IMG/VR virus record: IMGVR_UViG_3300048575_000062
Location: 1-43,878 of that record
Direction: 5' to 3' (one strand)
DNA length: 43,878 nucleotides
Origin: a virus
Lineage: Duplodnaviria > Caudoviricetes
Every line of letters starts with the position of its first letter. The stretch's first letter is position 1. Shown here piece by piece: positions 1,699 through 24,282 of the stretch. The translations under genes and the position numbers were made by a program. The notes beneath the pieces are model-generated. The model saw only the letters and a list, made by a program, of their open reading frames with translations. It was not told where the DNA came from and searched no databases.

Positions 1699-3078
1699 TT
1701 AATTTGCGTTTATGCTCTCTAAAATTCTTATAGATTCTCTATATTGCTCTGCTTGCGGAGTTCTTTCAAATTCAACAGTCTTGTCGTAATTGTTTTTAAT
1801 CACTTGTTCTATTTCATCTAACGAAACTTTAAAGAATTCCCTTCGATTATTAATCATATTGACCTTTTTGTTTTCAAAAGCTCTATGCAAGGCAGCTTCC
1901 AATCTAGGAGCATCGTCTGAGAAAATTATAGCATGAACATCGAATTTGAAAGGTACAGAAGCGTCTCCTAATTCATCCACTCTTTCCATCGGGTCAAGTC
2001 TTCGAGTCATACCTATTTTATATATATTTTCTCCAAATGAACCGATGTTAGATATGATATACACATATCCAGCTTTTTTATTTGCTTCACGGTAATCAAT
2101 ATCTTTAATTGCAACATCAAGTTCAGAGAGATGAGATTCAACCTCCTGTTTCTTAATTAGAAGAATCTCTTTTTCGATTTCATCACACGATTCGAGTTGC
2201 TTATTTAATTTTAATAGGGCATTGCTGTAATGTTTCTGTTCTTTTTCAATATCTCTTCTGGCTTCTTCTATTTCTTTTTGAAGTTTTGCTTCTTCACGCA
2301 TTTGTTCTCGTATACGTTTCTGCTCTTCTTTCTCTTCTTGCTTTTTTACTGCGTATTCATAAGCTAATTGGAGTTCATCTATTTTTAAAGACAAATATTC
2401 ATACGAGATAGAAATGGCATTTTTAGAGTTCATTTTGTTCAATGCATCGTAGGATTTTCTTATTTTCTCAATGAACGCCGCTATATTATTGAACTTGACT
2501 TTGCTTATTAGCATATCGCACTCATCGTTAAAACACCTGAGTATTTGTTTTATGTTTTGATTTGTCATGACTCTGCCTTGAGCTTCACTTCCGTTTATAG
2601 TCCAAGTTTCAGAACATGTTGCCGCTGTTTTGTACAAGATCATATTCTTCTGTTCTGTTCTAACCGCATCTAGTCTGTCTTTGTACATTTCAGAGTTGGC
2701 AAAATCGTAAATCGGTGAATACATACCAAATTCTTGGAGAAGTATTCTTTCATCGAGTTCTATTATCTCTTCTTTTTTACTTTGTATTTCTTGGCATAGC
2801 TTGTCTAGTCCTGATTTTAATTGAGTTATTTCCGACTGGCTCTTCTCTATCGCCTTTTGAGCTTGTTCTTCTTCAGTTCTTATTCTTAATAATATTTCAT
2901 CTTTCTTATTGTCTAAATCAGCTATCTCTTTGAACTTGGAAAGGGAGTCGCATTCCTTTTTTAATTCCTCAATCTTTTGGTTGAGATCTCGTTCCTTATT
3001 TGATGAAATTTCTAAGTCTTTTTTCAAGCAAGTTATTTCAGCAATTTCCTTTTGTTTTAAAAAATCAAAAAAAGCCAT
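1699..3078 (-). CDS. DUF4041 coiled-coil + T5orf172/MUG113 (GIY-YIG-like) protein
   Basis: Long coiled coil; GYVYIISNIGSFGENIYKIGMTRR...ASVPFKFDVH...LEAALH...REFF. Confidence 0.88.
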   Translation of the reverse strand: MAFFDFLKQKEIAEITCLKKDLEISSNKERDLNQKIEELKKECDSLSKFKEIADLDNKKDEILLRIRTEEEQAQKAIEKSQSEITQLKSGLDKLCQEIQSKKEEIIELDERILLQEFGMYSPIYDFANSEMYKDRLDAVRTEQKNMILYKTAATCSETWTINGSEAQGRVMTNQNIKQILRCFNDECDMLISKVKFNNIAAFIEKIRKSYDALNKMNSKNAISISYEYLSLKIDELQLAYEYAVKKQEEKEEQKRIREQMREEAKLQKEIEEARRDIEKEQKHYSNALLKLNKQLESCDEIEKEILLIKKQEVESHLSELDVAIKDIDYREANKKAGYVYIISNIGSFGENIYKIGMTRRLDPMERVDELGDASVPFKFDVHAIIFSDDAPRLEAALHRAFENKKVNMINNRREFFKVSLDEIEQVIKNNYDKTVEFERTPQAEQYRESIRILESINAN

Positions 3079-17013: not shown

Positions 17014-17773
17014 ATGAAACGTTATTATTTTTACAGAAGTTTTATTTTCTCTAGTGATACTAGGAATTACTATTTGCGGATGTGACAATAAATCAAAAAA
17101 AACATCCGACGTTGACATTGCAGGCAACATGGGAATGTATGTTGCCACATTGCCTTGTGCTGACTGCCCTGGCATCTTTACCCACCTTACACTGAATGCC
17201 GACAGCACTGCTTATCTGACCACGTTGTATATGGATTCAGACAACACGTCTGAAACAATAGATGGTAGGTGGATCTTTACAGATAGCATCTTTACTATTA
17301 AGGCATCAAACGGTGAAGTTACAATGTACAAACTGTTATCTGAAAATCAACTGGTACAGGTAGGCGAAACTAAAGAAGTGAAGAAAGAGTATATTCTTAC
17401 CAAAGAAGCAGAGATGTTAGCCGATAGTTTTGTAGGAACTTACAGTTTCGGTTCAGACGAAAAAGGTGCTTACAGGCAAACACTCAAGATTGCCAAAGTA
17501 GACGACAGGCATGTAGAAGTTGCTATCACTAAAACAGGCGGCAAAGCCAAAGGGTGTGAATTCAAGGCGCAAGGTTATATCGTAAACAACCAGATCGAGG
17601 TCAACCTAAAAGATGTGAACCCTGATATGAAATCAGTAATGACCATTTGCCCGCTTAACAGTGGGGATGGCCTGAATGTCTTTACTTCTAAGTTTGATGA
17701 TCGTTACGATCTGATGTTTTTCTGTGGTGGCGGTGGTAGCTTGGCAGGAGACTATATTAAAGAGAACCACTAG
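17014..17773 (+). pseudogene. NlpE N-terminal-domain lipoprotein with frameshift in signal peptide
   Basis: LPCADCPGI motif; ATG 17014 is one base out of frame with lipobox ICGC; the body frame has TGA at 17015. Confidence 0.7.
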
Positions 17774-19263: not shown

Positions 19264-19506
19264 TTATTCTCCTTTCTCTATATTAATTTTCTTTTTTCGT
19301 TCCAACTCTCCCTTTCTGATTATACAGATAGCATTCTCGTAAGGCTCTTCTGTTTTCTGCCAGTAGTTCAGCAAGGACTGACGGGCAATTCCAAGCTGTT
19401 TGCTTGTGAATACATCGTATACGGCAGCTGGTGAAGCAAAATACTTGTGCTCTCCGGTCGCTTTAATCTCTACATGTATAACTCTTCTTTTATCTTCCTT
19501 TTCCAT
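19264..19506 (-). CDS. Small HTH-like protein
   Basis: SKQLGIARQSLLNY; promoter TATATTTG at 19519-19512. Confidence 0.7.
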   Translation of the reverse strand: MEKEDKRRVIHVEIKATGEHKYFASPAAVYDVFTSKQLGIARQSLLNYWQKTEEPYENAICIIRKGELERKKKINIEKGE

Positions 19507-19658
19507 AAATGCAAATATACTTTATAATTATTATATGTTACGCAAAATAACTATATTATAATTTATTAACCATGCGAATAGTATTATATGATTCTTATTA
19601 TACTATATTTGTAATATCAAAATCAAATAAATTAATGACTAATTAAACATATACTATT

Positions 19659-20300
19659 ATGAACACATACGTAAAATATGTGCCAAACGTGTTTTTGGCA
19701 AAGTGCGAAGAAAAGCATGAAAAAGGCGAAATCATTGAAGTAACAACTAAATACGGCAAAGTGAATGAGAGTATTGTCTGTAATCTCGTGTTTGAAAAAG
19801 ATGGTTTTTACTACTACTCAATAGTTCGTGCAGACGGTTTCAACGTACAAGAGTGGGCAAAAGCCAGAGCTGAAAGGCGTAGAAGATGGGCAGCATCAGC
19901 TGAAAGAAAAAGTGAAGAGTACTTTAATGCTTCAAAAAAGTATGCTGATTTTCTTTCGTTGGGCGAACCTATTAAAATTGGGCACCATAGCGAAAGACGT
20001 CACAGAAGGATCATAGAAGAGGCTCATAATAACATGGGTAAATGCGTAGAATTTAGTAACAAAGCAGAAAAATATGAGAGTAAAGCTGAATATTGGGCAA
20101 GAAGGGCTAACACAATAAATCTGTCTATGCCTGAAAGTATCGAATACTATGAGCATAGATTAGAGGTTGCAAAAGAGCGGCATGAGGGATTAAAATCAGG
20201 CAAATATCCACGTGAACACGCTTATTCACTGACTTACGCTAAGAAAGACGTAAACGAAGCTCAAAAGAACTTCGATCTAGCTAAGAAATTGTGGGCGTAA
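19659..20300 (+). CDS. DUF3560-domain protein
   Basis: GEPIKIGHHSERRHRR signature; promoter TATATTTG at 19604-19611. Confidence 0.85.
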   Translation: MNTYVKYVPNVFLAKCEEKHEKGEIIEVTTKYGKVNESIVCNLVFEKDGFYYYSIVRADGFNVQEWAKARAERRRRWAASAERKSEEYFNASKKYADFLSLGEPIKIGHHSERRHRRIIEEAHNNMGKCVEFSNKAEKYESKAEYWARRANTINLSMPESIEYYEHRLEVAKERHEGLKSGKYPREHAYSLTYAKKDVNEAQKNFDLAKKLWA

Positions 20301-20360
20301 TGTAATAATAACAATTCATGGCATATCAAAGTTGGTATGTCATGAAAATCATCTAAATAG

Positions 20361-20385
20361 CGAACAATTGGCAAAAGGTGCGCTA
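20361..20385 (-). promoter_or_regulatory. Late-promoter upstream motif, copy 1
   Basis: TAGCGCACCTTT-N6-TTGTTCG on minus strand. Confidence 0.6.
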
Positions 20386-20424
20386 TGCACGTTTTAATAA
20401 TTAGCCCTTGGGCTTGGTATGTAG

Positions 20425-20432
20425 TATCTTTG
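20425..20432 (+). promoter_or_regulatory. -7 promoter element of tRNA/packaging operon
   Basis: TATCTTTG 9 nt before tRNA. Confidence 0.7.
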
Positions 20433-20441
20433 AGGTACTAT

Positions 20442-20514
20442 CGCGGGGTAGAGCAGTGGTCAGCTCGCTACTTTGACTTGGTAGAGGTCGGTGATTCGAA
20501 TTCATCCCCCGCAA
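20442..20514 (+). tRNA. Atypical tRNA: initiator-type body, anticodon GAC (Val)
   Basis: CGCGGGG/CCCCGCA (C1xA72), D-stem GAGC/GCTC, arm CTACT-TTGACTT-GGTAG, T-arm GGTGA-TTCGAAT-TCATC, A73. Confidence 0.85.
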
Positions 20515-20544
20515 CTATTAAATTATATACTAAATATCACGATT

Positions 20545-20910
20545 ATGGAAATTTTGACCCTCTCAATAAAACAGAAGTTTTTTGATGAGATTTTAGCAGG
20601 CATTAAGAAGCAAGAGTTTAGAGAGATTAGACCTAATTCTCAATCTAAATATTGTGAGCTTGATGAAGACGGCTATGTGAAAGAGATTGAAGGCGTTTTG
20701 CAACCTCGCAAATATGATGCTATCAAATTTTTAACAGGTGAATATAAGGGCAAAAGACCTTTTATAGTTGTAGAGGTCAAAGACGCTAAAATAGAACTCT
20801 TTGAAGATGAGAATCATGAATTAGTAACCTACGCCTATCAAGGTGAGCAGTATATAGCCGCTCAGGTGGTTTATGATCTAGGTGAGGTCTTAGAGAGACA
20901 TATAGATTGA
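20545..20910 (+). CDS. ASCH-domain protein
   Basis: LSIKQKFFDEILAGIKKQEFR (GxKxxExR). Confidence 0.85.
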   Translation: MEILTLSIKQKFFDEILAGIKKQEFREIRPNSQSKYCELDEDGYVKEIEGVLQPRKYDAIKFLTGEYKGKRPFIVVEVKDAKIELFEDENHELVTYAYQGEQYIAAQVVYDLGEVLERHID

Positions 20911-20936
20911 TTGTTTAATTAAAATTGATTTGCTGA

Positions 20937-21080
20937 GTTAGAATTAAAGTAGGTACAAGCGCAACGTCAAATAAAGGCGTTGTTGGTCGCAGAAGTTTTA
21001 CTGGTGGTAACGGCCAGTTTATGAACCGTAGACAGAAATACGGTGAAGTTCGTAGGGGATTAGGTTTATCCGGAGGTTAG
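20937..21080 (+). CDS. 47-codon Arg/Gly-rich peptide ending GLSGG; start uncertain
   Basis: Open frame GTT..TAG fills the gap between ASCH and PP-loop genes; preceded by in-frame TGA; only internal ATG at 21021. Confidence 0.65.
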   Translation, partial: VRIKVGTSATSNKGVVGRRSFTGGNGQFMNRRQKYGEVRRGLGLSGG

Positions 21081-21754
21081 TGTCTATGCTAATCGAGGAT
21101 ACATATTGCAGCATTGACCGAATTCGTGAAAAGACGAGTTCGGCTTTGCTGTTTTTATCTTTTGGTAAGGATAGCCTTGTCTTGCTTGACCTCATCTATC
21201 CGAAGTTTGACAGGATTGTATGTGCCTTTATGTATTTTGTCCCCGAACTGGGGCATATTGAACGCTGGATAAAGTGGACGAAAGCAAAGTACCCGAAAAT
21301 AGAGCTCATCCAAATACCGCATTGGAATTTAACCTACATACTTAAATCAGGTATGTATTGTGTTCCTAACCCTAAAGTAAAACTATTGAAGCTTGCTGAT
21401 GTGGTTAAATCCATGAAATTGAAATACGGTATTGATTATGTCTTTTTAGGGATGAAGAAAGCTGACTCCATGAATCGACGTTTGATGTTGAATAGAATGG
21501 GTTTCCCATACGAGAAAAACGGGATGGTTTACTCTCTGGCTGACTGGACGCAAAAGGATATTCTTGCTTATATGAAACAAAAAGGATTACCCGAGCCTGT
21601 AAGGTATTCCAAGAATGCCAGTGGCGGGGTTGGCTTTAATCCCGAATGCTTTTTATGGTTAGAAAAGAACTACCCTGAAGATCTTGAGAAGATTTACGGG
21701 GTATTTCCTATGAGTAGAAGAATATTATTTGAACACTATAATGGAACTAAGTAA
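21080..21754 (+). CDS. PAPS-reductase-like PP-loop protein
   Basis: SFGKDS PP-loop; GMKKADSMNRR; LADWT. Confidence 0.85.
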   Translation: MSMLIEDTYCSIDRIREKTSSALLFLSFGKDSLVLLDLIYPKFDRIVCAFMYFVPELGHIERWIKWTKAKYPKIELIQIPHWNLTYILKSGMYCVPNPKVKLLKLADVVKSMKLKYGIDYVFLGMKKADSMNRRLMLNRMGFPYEKNGMVYSLADWTQKDILAYMKQKGLPEPVRYSKNASGGVGFNPECFLWLEKNYPEDLEKIYGVFPMSRRILFEHYNGTK

Positions 21755-22481
21755 GTATATAACATCGGAATCGGTAGAGCTTAAACGCTCTATGATTCAT
21801 CTAGCAGGGTATAATCCCCGTAAAATATCCGAAGAAGCGAAGAAAACGCTTAAACGAGGGATAAAGAAATTCGGGCTTGTAGGCGGTTTGGTAGTAAACA
21901 AGCGTACAGGTATGACACTTGTATCGGGGCACCAGCGTTTATCCGTTATGGATGAGCTGAATAAGTATCCGGATAATGATTATCTAATTCGTGTAGAGCT
22001 TATTGATGTTGACGAAAAGCGGGAAAAGGAGCTAAACATCTTAACGAATAATCCAAATGCTATGGGCTCATGGGATTATGACGCTTTACGTGAGCTTATT
22101 CCCGATATAGATTGGAAAGATGCCGGACTGACAGATGTAGATTTGAATCTCATCGGCTGTGATTTCTTACTCCAGACAGAAGAGGAAAGCTCACTCGCTG
22201 ATGCACTAAGTGATATGATGGCACCTGTTACCGAACAGAAAGAAGCCGAGAAAGCTGCTAAACAATTGGAAAAGGCGGAAAAGGTCGCTCACATGAAAGA
22301 CGTTAAAGAACAGGTAAAGCAGTCAGCACAAGAAAAAGCAAACGATATGGATGCCTATCTGATGTTATCCTTTTCTTCCTATGAGGAGAAAGCTGCTTTC
22401 TGTGAAAGGTTTGGATTTGACCCCAACGAGAAGTTTATAGTAGGTTCAGTATTTGATGAAATGATAGAAAGGATAGATTGA
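21741..22481 (+). CDS. ParB/Srx N-terminal domain protein
   Basis: YNPRKIS...LVVN...LVSGHQRL. Confidence 0.88.
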   Translation: MELSKYITSESVELKRSMIHLAGYNPRKISEEAKKTLKRGIKKFGLVGGLVVNKRTGMTLVSGHQRLSVMDELNKYPDNDYLIRVELIDVDEKREKELNILTNNPNAMGSWDYDALRELIPDIDWKDAGLTDVDLNLIGCDFLLQTEEESSLADALSDMMAPVTEQKEAEKAAKQLEKAEKVAHMKDVKEQVKQSAQEKANDMDAYLMLSFSSYEEKAAFCERFGFDPNEKFIVGSVFDEMIERID

Positions 22482-22483
22482 TT

Positions 22484-23017
22484 ATGGCAAGAAGTGAATC
22501 TAAAGATACAGCAAAGAGCAATAAGGGAAGAAAACCCAAATTTGATTACACAGGAGAAGAGTTCCTTTCCTCTGTGGAATCATTTGCAAAGAAAGGATTC
22601 ACGGATAAAGAGATTGCTTATGCTTTGGGTATAGCTCCGCAAAGATTTTGTGAGAAGAAGAGTTTGCACCCGGAATTACGTGAAGTCTTAGCGCGCGGGC
22701 GGGCGACAATTAACGCAGCGGTAAGGGCAAAATTCCTTGCAATGGCTATTGGTGGTATTAAGACAAAGAGTGTTACTAAGCGTAAACTGAAAGATATTAA
22801 TGGGGATTATACGGGCGATGAAGAAATTCAGAGTGTAGAAAGTGAGCTGGCTCCAAGTCTTCAAGCTATGTCCGTCTGGTTATACCATCATGACGAAGAG
22901 TGGAGAAAGATTGAACGAAAGCAGGATGAAGATGCCAGCGATATTCCTACAGATATAAAGCAAGGCGTTGATATTGATTCTTGGATTAAAGATCAGGTGA
23001 AAGGAGATGGGAAATGA
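22484..23017 (+). CDS. terS: Terminase small subunit
   Basis: GRKPK, HTH (GFTDKEIAYALGI), directly before TerL. Confidence 0.8.
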   Translation: MARSESKDTAKSNKGRKPKFDYTGEEFLSSVESFAKKGFTDKEIAYALGIAPQRFCEKKSLHPELREVLARGRATINAAVRAKFLAMAIGGIKTKSVTKRKLKDINGDYTGDEEIQSVESELAPSLQAMSVWLYHHDEEWRKIERKQDEDASDIPTDIKQGVDIDSWIKDQVKGDGK

Positions 23018-24282
23018 TTACCCCGCAGGCCATTTACCATCCGTTATACATTGACAAGGAGAAGTTTATAATTCTTATTACCGGTGGTCGTGGATCGGGT
23101 AAGTCGTTCAATGCATCTACCTTTATCGAGCGTCTGACATTTGAAATGACTCCTGTCGAGAAGATAGTTCATCAGATTCTTTATACCCGTTACACAATGG
23201 TTTCGGCCGGAATATCTATTATTCCCGAAATGATGGAGAAGATAGAACTGGATGGAACAACGAAATATTTTAAGACTACCAAGACGGATATAGTCAACAG
23301 AATGACTAACAGCCGTATCATGTTCCGGGGTATCAAAACCTCATCAGGGAATCAGACGGCAAAGCTGAAATCCATTCAAGGCATAACGACTTTTGTCTGT
23401 GATGAAGCGGAGGAGTGGACTAATGAGGAGGAATTTGATAAGATCATGCTCTCCATTCGTAAGAAGGGTATTCAGAACCGGATTATCATCATAATGAACC
23501 CTTGTGATTCCAATCACTTCATCTATAAAAAATACATTGAGAAAACTCATAAACAGGTAGAAATTGACGGTGTTCAGGTGCAAATCTCCACTCATCCAAA
23601 CGTATTACACATTCACACCACTTACCTTGATAATATGGAGAATCTTTCTCCTGAGTTCTTGAAAGAGGTTCAGGATATGAAGGTGAGCAACCCCGAAAAG
23701 TACGCCCATGTGGTTATCGGTCGTTGGGCAGATGTTGCCGCGGGTGCTGTGTTCAAGAAGTGGGGTATTGTTGATGAATTTCCACCTTATGCGAAAAAGG
23801 TTGCCATAGGTCAGGACTTCGGTTATACGCACGATCCGTCGGCTTCCATTCGTTGCGGTATCGTTGACAATGCTTTGTATCTGGATGAAGTTGACTATCG
23901 AACTGGATTATTGTCTTCTGACATTATTAAAACACTCCGTCCGTGGGGATTGAAAGTATATGCAGATAGTGCCGATCCCCGGCTGATTCAGGAAATACAC
24001 AACGGTGGTATTACCATCTATGCAACGGAGAAAGGTGCCGGATCAATCAATGCCGGTATTGACAAAATGCAAAGCATGGAGATATTTATCACTAAGAGGT
24101 CTTATAATCTGATAAGAGAGTTTAGAAACTATGTATGGGCAAAGGACAAAGACGGGAACTATATCAATGAGCCGGAGGATCACGATAACCACGGGATCGA
24201 CGCTGCCCGATATTATTGTTTGTGTGCCCTCTTAGGTAAGATTCAGAAGCCTAAAGATTTAACAGGAATATTCACACATTAA
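23014..24282 (+). CDS. terL: Terminase large subunit, PBSX family
   Basis: GGRGSGKS; DEAEE; DFGY..DP; NHGIDAARY. Confidence 0.95.
   Translation: MITPQAIYHPLYIDKEKFIILITGGRGSGKSFNASTFIERLTFEMTPVEKIVHQILYTRYTMVSAGISIIPEMMEKIELDGTTKYFKTTKTDIVNRMTNSRIMFRGIKTSSGNQTAKLKSIQGITTFVCDEAEEWTNEEEFDKIMLSIRKKGIQNRIIIIMNPCDSNHFIYKKYIEKTHKQVEIDGVQVQISTHPNVLHIHTTYLDNMENLSPEFLKEVQDMKVSNPEKYAHVVIGRWADVAAGAVFKKWGIVDEFPPYAKKVAIGQDFGYTHDPSASIRCGIVDNALYLDEVDYRTGLLSSDIIKTLRPWGLKVYADSADPRLIQEIHNGGITIYATEKGAGSINAGIDKMQSMEIFITKRSYNLIREFRNYVWAKDKDGNYINEPEDHDNHGIDAARYYCLCALLGKIQKPKDLTGIFTH

Follow-up and report, generated by a model that had tools for sequence, protein, structure and literature searches.

A tRNA encoded by this phage, which combines the body of a bacterial initiator with the anticodon GAC, is very probably a private initiator of linked genes that have no ATG start, by which it likely gates a packaging operon at its head. 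This reading, which was drawn from sequence comparison and had been put forward in a preliminary description of the same DNA as a private pair of initiator and start codon, was supported by covariation of the tRNA with the start, by reversion to ATG, by alignment with orthologues and by the spacing of upstream elements.

The window (the whole 43,878-nucleotide stretch of DNA analyzed, a viral record that is 75% complete) encodes a temperate siphovirus-like phage with repressor, Sak4, helicase, terminase, portal, head and tape-measure genes, and most of its closest labelled relatives were Bacteroides prophages. The plus strand at the start of the packaging region carries in order the tRNA (20442–20515), a gene for an ASCH-like protein of 121 aa (20545–20910; Pfam ASCH E=0.0078, below the cut-off), a 47-codon peptide gene (20937–21080), a PP-loop/PAPS-reductase-like ATPase gene starting 5 nt further on (21086–21754; PF01507 E=4.5e-6; phrog_424), a ParB-like gene (21741–22481; phrog_620 E=8.7e-25), and the genes for the small (22484–23017) and large (23014–24282) terminase subunits, with portal, head and tail genes downstream. 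The counterpart of the ASCH-like gene in phage BS-TP2 is named as an ASCH-domain protein, and the PP-loop profile gave a single short match against the PDB, to CysD. A promoter-like box predicted from the sequence (TATCTTTG; 20425–20432, plus strand) lies 9 nt 5′ of the tRNA within a short inverted repeat (plus-strand arms at 20422–20429 and 20433–20440) and resembles TAnnTTTG, the Bacteroidota −7 consensus; among 122 distinct upstream regions, 100 had such a box 3–25 nt 5′ of the tRNA. Repeats similar to that at 20422–20440 occur in many relatives and may represent an operator. Elsewhere in the record, a second tRNA gene, tRNA-Arg(TCT), at 177–251 near the left end is possibly an attachment site, and the signal-peptide frame of an NlpE-like lipoprotein gene (17018–17773) has no ATG, one being located slightly upstream in another frame, which suggests a frameshift or a sequence error. 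Motif and ORF scans for further private starts in the window yielded none that was convincing.

The initiator-like tRNA and the start of the peptide gene

The tRNA gene, with its anticodon at 20475–20477, was called by ARAGORN and matched the Rfam tRNA family with 51.4 bits. It carries C1×A72, G2–C71, C3–G70, A11–U24, A73, U37 and U38, and its anticodon stem consists of A29–U41, C30–G40 and U31·G39, that is, it is without the three G–C (3GC) pairs; A53–U61 is unusual, and CCA is not encoded. The fMet-type hallmarks, the GAC anticodon, U37 and the missing 3GC pairs reported previously were all confirmed by ARAGORN, Rfam and the sequence itself. The phage tRNAs share with bacterial tRNA-fMet the 1×72 mismatch, G2–C71, C3–G70, A11–U24, A73 and the D- and T-arm sequence, but differ from it in having the anticodons GAC, AAC, AGT, GGT, CGT, GAT or GCT instead of CAU and U37 or G37 instead of A37, in the loss of 3GC in the Val classes, and in being phage-encoded and matched to few genes. 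Host Bacteroidota initiator tRNAs likewise have A37, and their D- and T-arm sequence is close to that of the phage tRNA. By membership, the phage tRNA is not a tRNA-fMet, since its anticodon, base 37 and 3GC positions depart from that class, nor is it an elongator tRNA-Val(GAC), since C1×A72 is unpaired and U37 is not a purine. Position 1:72 was unpaired in 38 of 39 aligned relative tRNAs, through several base identities, and all four stems covaried. In a blastn search, most of the other matches in named phages were annotated as tRNA-Met, where any tRNA was annotated. A11 was found in all GAC (54/54) and AAC (12/12) tRNAs, and U11 in all seven Thr-class G37 tRNAs, which have 3GC or nearly so, yet carry U11–A24 in place of A11–U24. 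C36 is one of the determinants recognized by ValRS. Two others, A35 and A73, named as such in PMC9976931, are present in the window tRNA.

The peptide ORF follows an in-frame TGA (20934–20936) and opens at 20937 with GTT (20937–20939) preceded by A (written A-GTT, the first letter being base −1), runs for 47 codons and ends with TAG (21078–21080); GTT would be read by GAC through a G34·U wobble. The Arg/Gly-rich product, with the C-terminus LSGG, belongs to a real gene family, as the nine of ten protein matches that were aligned are all Met-initiated, 48–49 aa long and 68–79% identical to it over the whole length of the peptide, and GTT aligned with the orthologue ATG (V-R-R-R-T-T-Y versus M-K-R-R-T-T-Y). 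The peptide had no Pfam or PHROG family and no informative Atlas match. Two other conceivable starts, which the preliminary description had set against GTT, were rejected: TTG 20925 is in frame but shut off by the TGA, and ATG 21021 would yield only the last 19 codons, whereas the Met-initiated orthologues are full length.

The predicted private start site (20921–20939, plus strand) comprises an A-run at −16 to −13, GCTGA at −5 to −1 and the GTT codon. A−1 and G−5 were invariant in 79 distinct Val-class starts. At all Val and Thr starts, G−5 was invariant and −4 always a pyrimidine, whatever the tRNA carries. The window start is weak, with wobble pairing, no Shine–Dalgarno sequence and a start-region score of −0.7; an upstream GTT wobble start with GAC was confined to the window's lineage (1 of 73 upstream starts), and a close relative of the window (L289) has shifted to AAC/GTT. 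Among the downstream peptides, wobble starts were common: 26 distinct ones were counted, and each had GGAGG. More generally, peptides 3′ of the PP-loop gene in the GAC class had GGAGG at Shine–Dalgarno spacing in 49 of 56 distinct starts, and GGAGG preceded 26/26 downstream GTT starts versus 0/73 upstream starts of this class. Bacteroidia ribosomes reportedly ignore Shine–Dalgarno sequences.

Several larger genes point to the cognate triplet as the start codon. In L331, the PP-loop enzyme itself (220 aa) starts at A-GTC with a stop just upstream, reading V-S-K-I against M-S-K-I in the orthologue. In an unrelated setting, the tape-measure gene of L581/L623 begins with A-AGC opposite the ATG of its nearest relatives; ATG was present in 76 of 80 tape-measure relatives, the tRNA only in L623, and three relatives had neither a nearby ATG nor the tRNA. 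An A occupied −13 in 91% of the 79 Val and 100% of the 10 Thr starts, as compared with 84–90% of ATG starts. Of 93 sites, 66 had the peak of a profile trained on ATG starts (−20 to −6) at most 1 nt from the cognate codon, where about 9 were expected. A−12 and A−13 are described as stimulating initiation in Flavobacterium (PMC6847099). In a phage of 58% GC (L622), a full Shine–Dalgarno sequence lies 7 nt 5′ of A-ATC, with two in-frame stops between them. Assembled metatranscriptome contigs covered a related locus (L019) patchily and gave no start, strand or level.

Covariation of the tRNA with the start codon

The close set comprised the window and 80 viral loci retrieved by means of the ASCH protein. 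A peptide match was obtained in 77 of these 81 loci, all 77 having TGA-GTY-AG and an upstream tRNA(GAC); of the four others, three had both features on reading and one was a lone ASCH copy. Distant GAC loci had CGA or AGA before GTC, leaving A-GTC as the constant core. Because these triplets also stand before GTC, the TGA that the preliminary description had noted before the start is not part of the signal.

We examined 392 PP-loop loci, in 373 of which the peptide was called. Bases 34–37 of the tRNA matched codon 1 and base −1 in 319 of 320 tRNA-bearing loci, which are redundant and represent 103 distinct contexts; a match was defined as a cognate or G·U-wobble four-mer, in frame and within the first 12 codons, for tRNAs with 7-nt loops. 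The sole miss had a frameshift inside the peptide. Left out before this count were L308, L312, L316, L347, one duplicate and three loci with 8-nt loops. Nine classes of anticodon and base 37 were recognized, each matched by its own start: GAC/U37 by A-GTC, AAC/U37 by A-GTT, AGT/G37 by C-ACT, GGT/G37 by C-ACC (L261), CGT/G37 by C-ACG (L346), GGT/U37 by A-ACC (L520), GAT/U37 by A-ATC (L368 and L622), GCT/U37 by A-AGC (L581), and CAT/A37 by T-ATG (L344). Base 37 was complementary to base −1 in nine of nine, and in L261 and L520, which have an identical anticodon (GGT), the two bases differ in step. A control with non-cognate classes was noisy, giving 139 matches in 1610, 58 of them GTT wobble starts.

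Among 80 held-out metagenome loci, a match was found in 68 of the 71 that carried the tRNA and a called peptide, and in the other three a short leader ORF bears the cognate or wobble start; a further three, which lacked the tRNA, used ATG, and the remaining six were truncated, interrupted or without clear assignment. In a phylogeny of 65 PP-loop proteins, at least 19 changes of start codon were counted. Five independent well-supported pairs could be drawn from it, in which tRNA presence went with a non-ATG start in a mean of 4.9 of 5 and never the opposite, the lowest p-value that a sign test on five pairs can reach being 0.0625. The 37/−1 switch was represented by one independent pair in the PP-loop tree, and L520 was found afterwards. 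The comparison that the preliminary description had proposed thus turned out as it predicted, in that the linked tRNA reads the start of the homologues, the pair covaries, and tRNA-less relatives use ATG. Its idea of an mRNA-specific initiator did not hold for a single mRNA, since a locus has up to three peptide genes and the target elsewhere is an enzyme or a tape-measure gene.

Loci that have lost the tRNA, and many relatives manage without this system, behaved consistently. Among 33 distinct tRNA-less groups, 31 clearly used ATG, one had an uncertain frame call and one was cut by the contig end. An HNH gene lay within the tRNA in eight loci (L084, L094, L148, L127, L142, L035, L052 and L078). 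The insertion point was just 3′ of the anticodon arm, and a second, downstream copy of the tRNA was intact in five of these loci and had decayed in the other three. The three loci with a split and decayed tRNA used ATG, and of the five with a restored tRNA, the two examined in detail retained GTC. Since L316 and L347 had A-GTC but no tRNA in view, an initiator tRNA was predicted elsewhere in these genomes, and each indeed has an initiator-bodied tRNA(GAC); in three ATG genomes, only an initiator body with CAT was found among the best matches listed.

Exceptions and outlying cases were also encountered. L531 had A-GTC with no tRNA seen, and L215/L382 retained C-ACT although the 5′ half of the tRNA is missing. 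Initiator-bodied tRNAs with 8-nt loops stood beside ATG peptides in L342, L343 and L348; a cognate start was looked for in L343 and L348 and not found, and L342 has an in-frame A-TGC two codons 5′ of the ATG that would fit an anticodon GCA. Initiator-bodied tRNAs also occur in other phages (L557, L558, L559, L579 and L605, with anticodons CCT, GTT, CCA, TTT and GCA), where a search within 2.5 kb gave no convincing cognate start. The relatives of the L622 terminase were distant, and in none of the 35 others did an initiator-bodied tRNA lie within 1.2 kb. In L368 (about 2970–3000), no ATG is found close to where the PP-loop gene should begin, an ATA codon lying there instead. L560 and 47 similar gut-phage loci carry initiator-bodied tRNA-like genes with an anticodon loop of about 3 nt, 5′ of a long ORF.

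Complementarity beyond the anticodon and other possible roles for the tRNA

The tRNA segment 20472–20485 pairs with 20929–20942 over 14 nt (eight Watson–Crick and six G·U pairs), in the register that places GAC on GTT, exactly as had been described, and no other 14-mer on the plus strand of the window can pair with the tRNA segment throughout. The duplex was calculated at −11.9 kcal/mol versus −2.6 kcal/mol for the anticodon stem-loop; in a cofold of the whole tRNA with the start region, it was not chosen. The proposal that it represents a conserved mechanism had to be abandoned, as full pairing was possible in only 17 of 103 distinct loci. The duplex that covaries is 4 nt long (34–37 with +3 to −1), sometimes 5 (38 with −2). 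Position 38 paired as a rule, whereas pairing failed at 39 and 40 in the AGT class and at 40 in the AAC class.

The alternative that comes closest to private initiation, although we regard it as unlikely, is that in the GAC class the extended duplex, formed with an opened stem (39–41 with −3 to −5), docks the tRNA first and replaces 3GC selection. Pairing at 39/40/41 was possible in 92/96/98% of 80 distinct GAC contexts, as compared with 100/12/38% in the AAC class and 0/0/100% in the AGT class, and G30 occurred in 3 of 54 distinct GAC tRNAs, 11 of 12 AAC tRNAs and 7 of 7 Thr-class tRNAs; thus, it is the class without G30 that can pair at 39–41, whereas AAC and AGT keep this base. Nevertheless, because G−5 and the pyrimidine at −4 are fixed in the Val and Thr classes regardless of the tRNA, there is no covariation for the 39–41 pairing; the full duplex is found in 17 of 103 loci; pairing on the plus side is a consequence of Arg, Ala or Gly second codons; and a P-site tRNA requires an intact anticodon stem.

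Private initiation itself has to accommodate the anticodon stem, as C30–G40 in the window tRNA and the lack of G30 in 51 of 54 distinct GAC tRNAs count against ordinary initiation. The base of 3GC that matters most in E. coli is G30; although a mid-CG mutant reaches the 70S ribosome, it cannot sustain growth (PMC5389676). We infer that the GAC tRNA may be a deliberately weak initiator, aided by the 37:−1 pair and requiring a high tRNA level.

A still less probable role, to which we give little credence, is regulation by RNA pairing, in which the tRNA would act as a T-box-like or antisense ligand to open or close the mRNA and translation would start with host fMet-tRNA or elsewhere. Covariation of the anticodon loop by itself would fit such a role, the 14-nt pairing is stable for naked RNA, and in five loci (L308, L312, L543, L554 and L556) the cognate codon precedes a strong hairpin and the peptide is on ATG. 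Against this, the cognate triplet lies in frame at the ATG position of orthologues in genes lacking any other start, among them the 220-aa enzyme and the tape-measure gene, and at initiation spacing from an A-run or Shine–Dalgarno sequence; the 1×72 mismatch is retained in 38 of 39 tRNAs; and an Rfam search of 19500–21800 at E≤1 for a T-box gave the tRNA as its only match.

We consider it highly improbable that the tRNA is an elongator or recoding tRNA that decodes GTY during read-through or hopping over the TGA from an upstream start: the window does have an in-frame TTG three codons 5′ of the TGA, and in most close relatives GTY comes immediately after TGA, but the TTG is not conserved, CGA or AGA replaces TGA in many loci, tRNA-less relatives have ATG at the GTY position, and the 1×72 mismatch and U37 fit initiation better than elongation. 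We give hardly any probability to a main role of the tRNA as substrate or cofactor for its two neighbours, the ASCH and PP-loop proteins, or as a site of integration or homing, with the start match incidental. PP-loop enzymes do include tRNA-modifying ones, and HNH genes do insert into the tRNA in eight loci, but the tRNA also occurs where ASCH and PP-loop genes are missing, beside a terminase or tape-measure gene that has the cognate start or lies 3′ of it, ASCH remains in 34 of 40 tRNA-less PP-loop loci, and nine matched classes are not incidental. ASCH had been considered as a dedicated partner of the tRNA and was rejected on the same count of tRNA-less loci.

Predicted mechanism, targets and relation to known systems

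In the mechanism we propose for private initiation, the tRNA would be transcribed from the upstream promoter-like box, processed and provided with CCA by host enzymes, charged by host ValRS via A35 and A73, formylated by host Fmt via 1×72 and R11:Y24, and delivered to the P site by IF2, so that linked genes would start with (formyl-)valine. Since a search of the window record (75% complete) and four related records found no phage Fmt, the host enzyme would serve. The 37:−1 pair would add affinity and specificity and offset the missing 3GC pairs. Host fMet-tRNA would read GUC and GUU very poorly, so output would depend on the phage tRNA that has accumulated; this could make expression of the basic peptides and, via coupling or leader translation, of downstream genes switchable in a leak-proof, delayed or copy-number-dependent way. 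The separate steps have published parallels: engineered tRNAfMet(GAC) receives valine, is formylated and starts translation at GUC (PMC2268962); with i-tRNA(AAC), translation from GUU begins with Val and fVal, charging and formylation being limiting (bioRxiv 10.64898/2025.12.21.695813); tRNA base 37 pairs with mRNA base −1 (PMC10018350); and IF3 tolerates G/U at the third position (PMC11744186), which would cover the GAC/GTT wobble of the window.

The target genes vary, being one to three basic peptides per locus, an enzyme, a tail gene or a short leader ORF, so ribosome loading, rather than the N-terminal residue, appears to be the selected property. On balance we lean, by a small degree, towards a tRNA-dependent gate on late genes as the purpose of the system; roles of the peptide and of the PP-loop and ParB-like proteins in DNA binding or as substrates are guesses. 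In the five loci L308, L312, L543, L554 and L556, a cognate or wobble start just after the ASCH stop opens an unconserved leader ORF of 5–30 codons, which overlaps, or lies 5′ of, a strong hairpin whose tail is U-rich, after which the peptide starts with ATG, an arrangement that resembles an attenuator. These hairpins were identified by folding alone and could equally be processing sites, and a consensus terminator scan of L312 did not call its leader hairpin. In L621, a Shine–Dalgarno-led mini-ORF of three codons at GCTGA-ATC, together with a hairpin, lies 41 nt 5′ of a tRNA(GAT), possibly reflecting autoregulation.

T-box riboswitches are defined by a Stem I with a specifier loop and a T-box antiterminator, and leader-peptide attenuators by stalling codons. 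As in these systems, a match between tRNA and codon ahead of a hairpin could control downstream expression in the five loci; unlike in them, no T-box fold was found (19500–21800 of the window), and a dedicated tRNA would read the codon as a start rather than as a specifier or stalling codon. The closest counterparts are the engineered tRNAfMet G34C36 (GAC) and i-tRNA(AAC), which have identical anticodons and start codons and whose target ORFs also begin with the cognate codon. The predicted phage system differs from them in being natural, in covering at least four non-Met amino acids, and in its covarying 37:−1 pair and remodelled anticodon stem. A quadruplet pairing of A37 in tRNA-fMet with U−1, shown by mutation, tunes AUG initiation (PMC10018350); the phage pairs likewise have base 37 complementary to base −1, but are evolutionarily fixed as U37:A, G37:C or A37:U in a non-AUG system.

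We found no report of a natural pair of non-CAU initiator and start codon, or of such an operon, in a literature search that covered subscription journals thinly, and PMC10853773 contained nothing on this locus. To our knowledge, bacterial proteins are held to start with fMet via a CAU initiator, and initiators with other anticodons are engineered tools. A natural private pair would therefore be categorically new if initiation is confirmed, would break the fMet/CAU rule as an evolving pair, and would add a new layer of phage gene control. Slightly better than even, in our judgment, is the chance that these loci use a natural orthogonal initiation code, in which bases 34–37 serve as a password over Val, Thr, Ile and Ser, the tRNA acts as a trans-acting translational switch, and the commonest class works without 3GC. 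Such a switch would license packaging-operon peptides, enzymes, structural genes or attenuator-like leaders once the phage tRNA accumulates. If this is true, the phages would hold evolved orthogonal initiators, with solutions in the stem and at position 37, for synthetic biology. The loci also supply evolutionary evidence for the 37:−1 pair and offer a natural setting in which to examine when 3GC is dispensable. The cultured phage BS-TP2, whose host is Bacteroides salyersiae, carries the system, which is therefore directly testable. Gene callers overlook or shorten genes of this kind: in the annotation of BS-TP2, the tRNA is absent from the list and the peptide is begun at an internal ATG.
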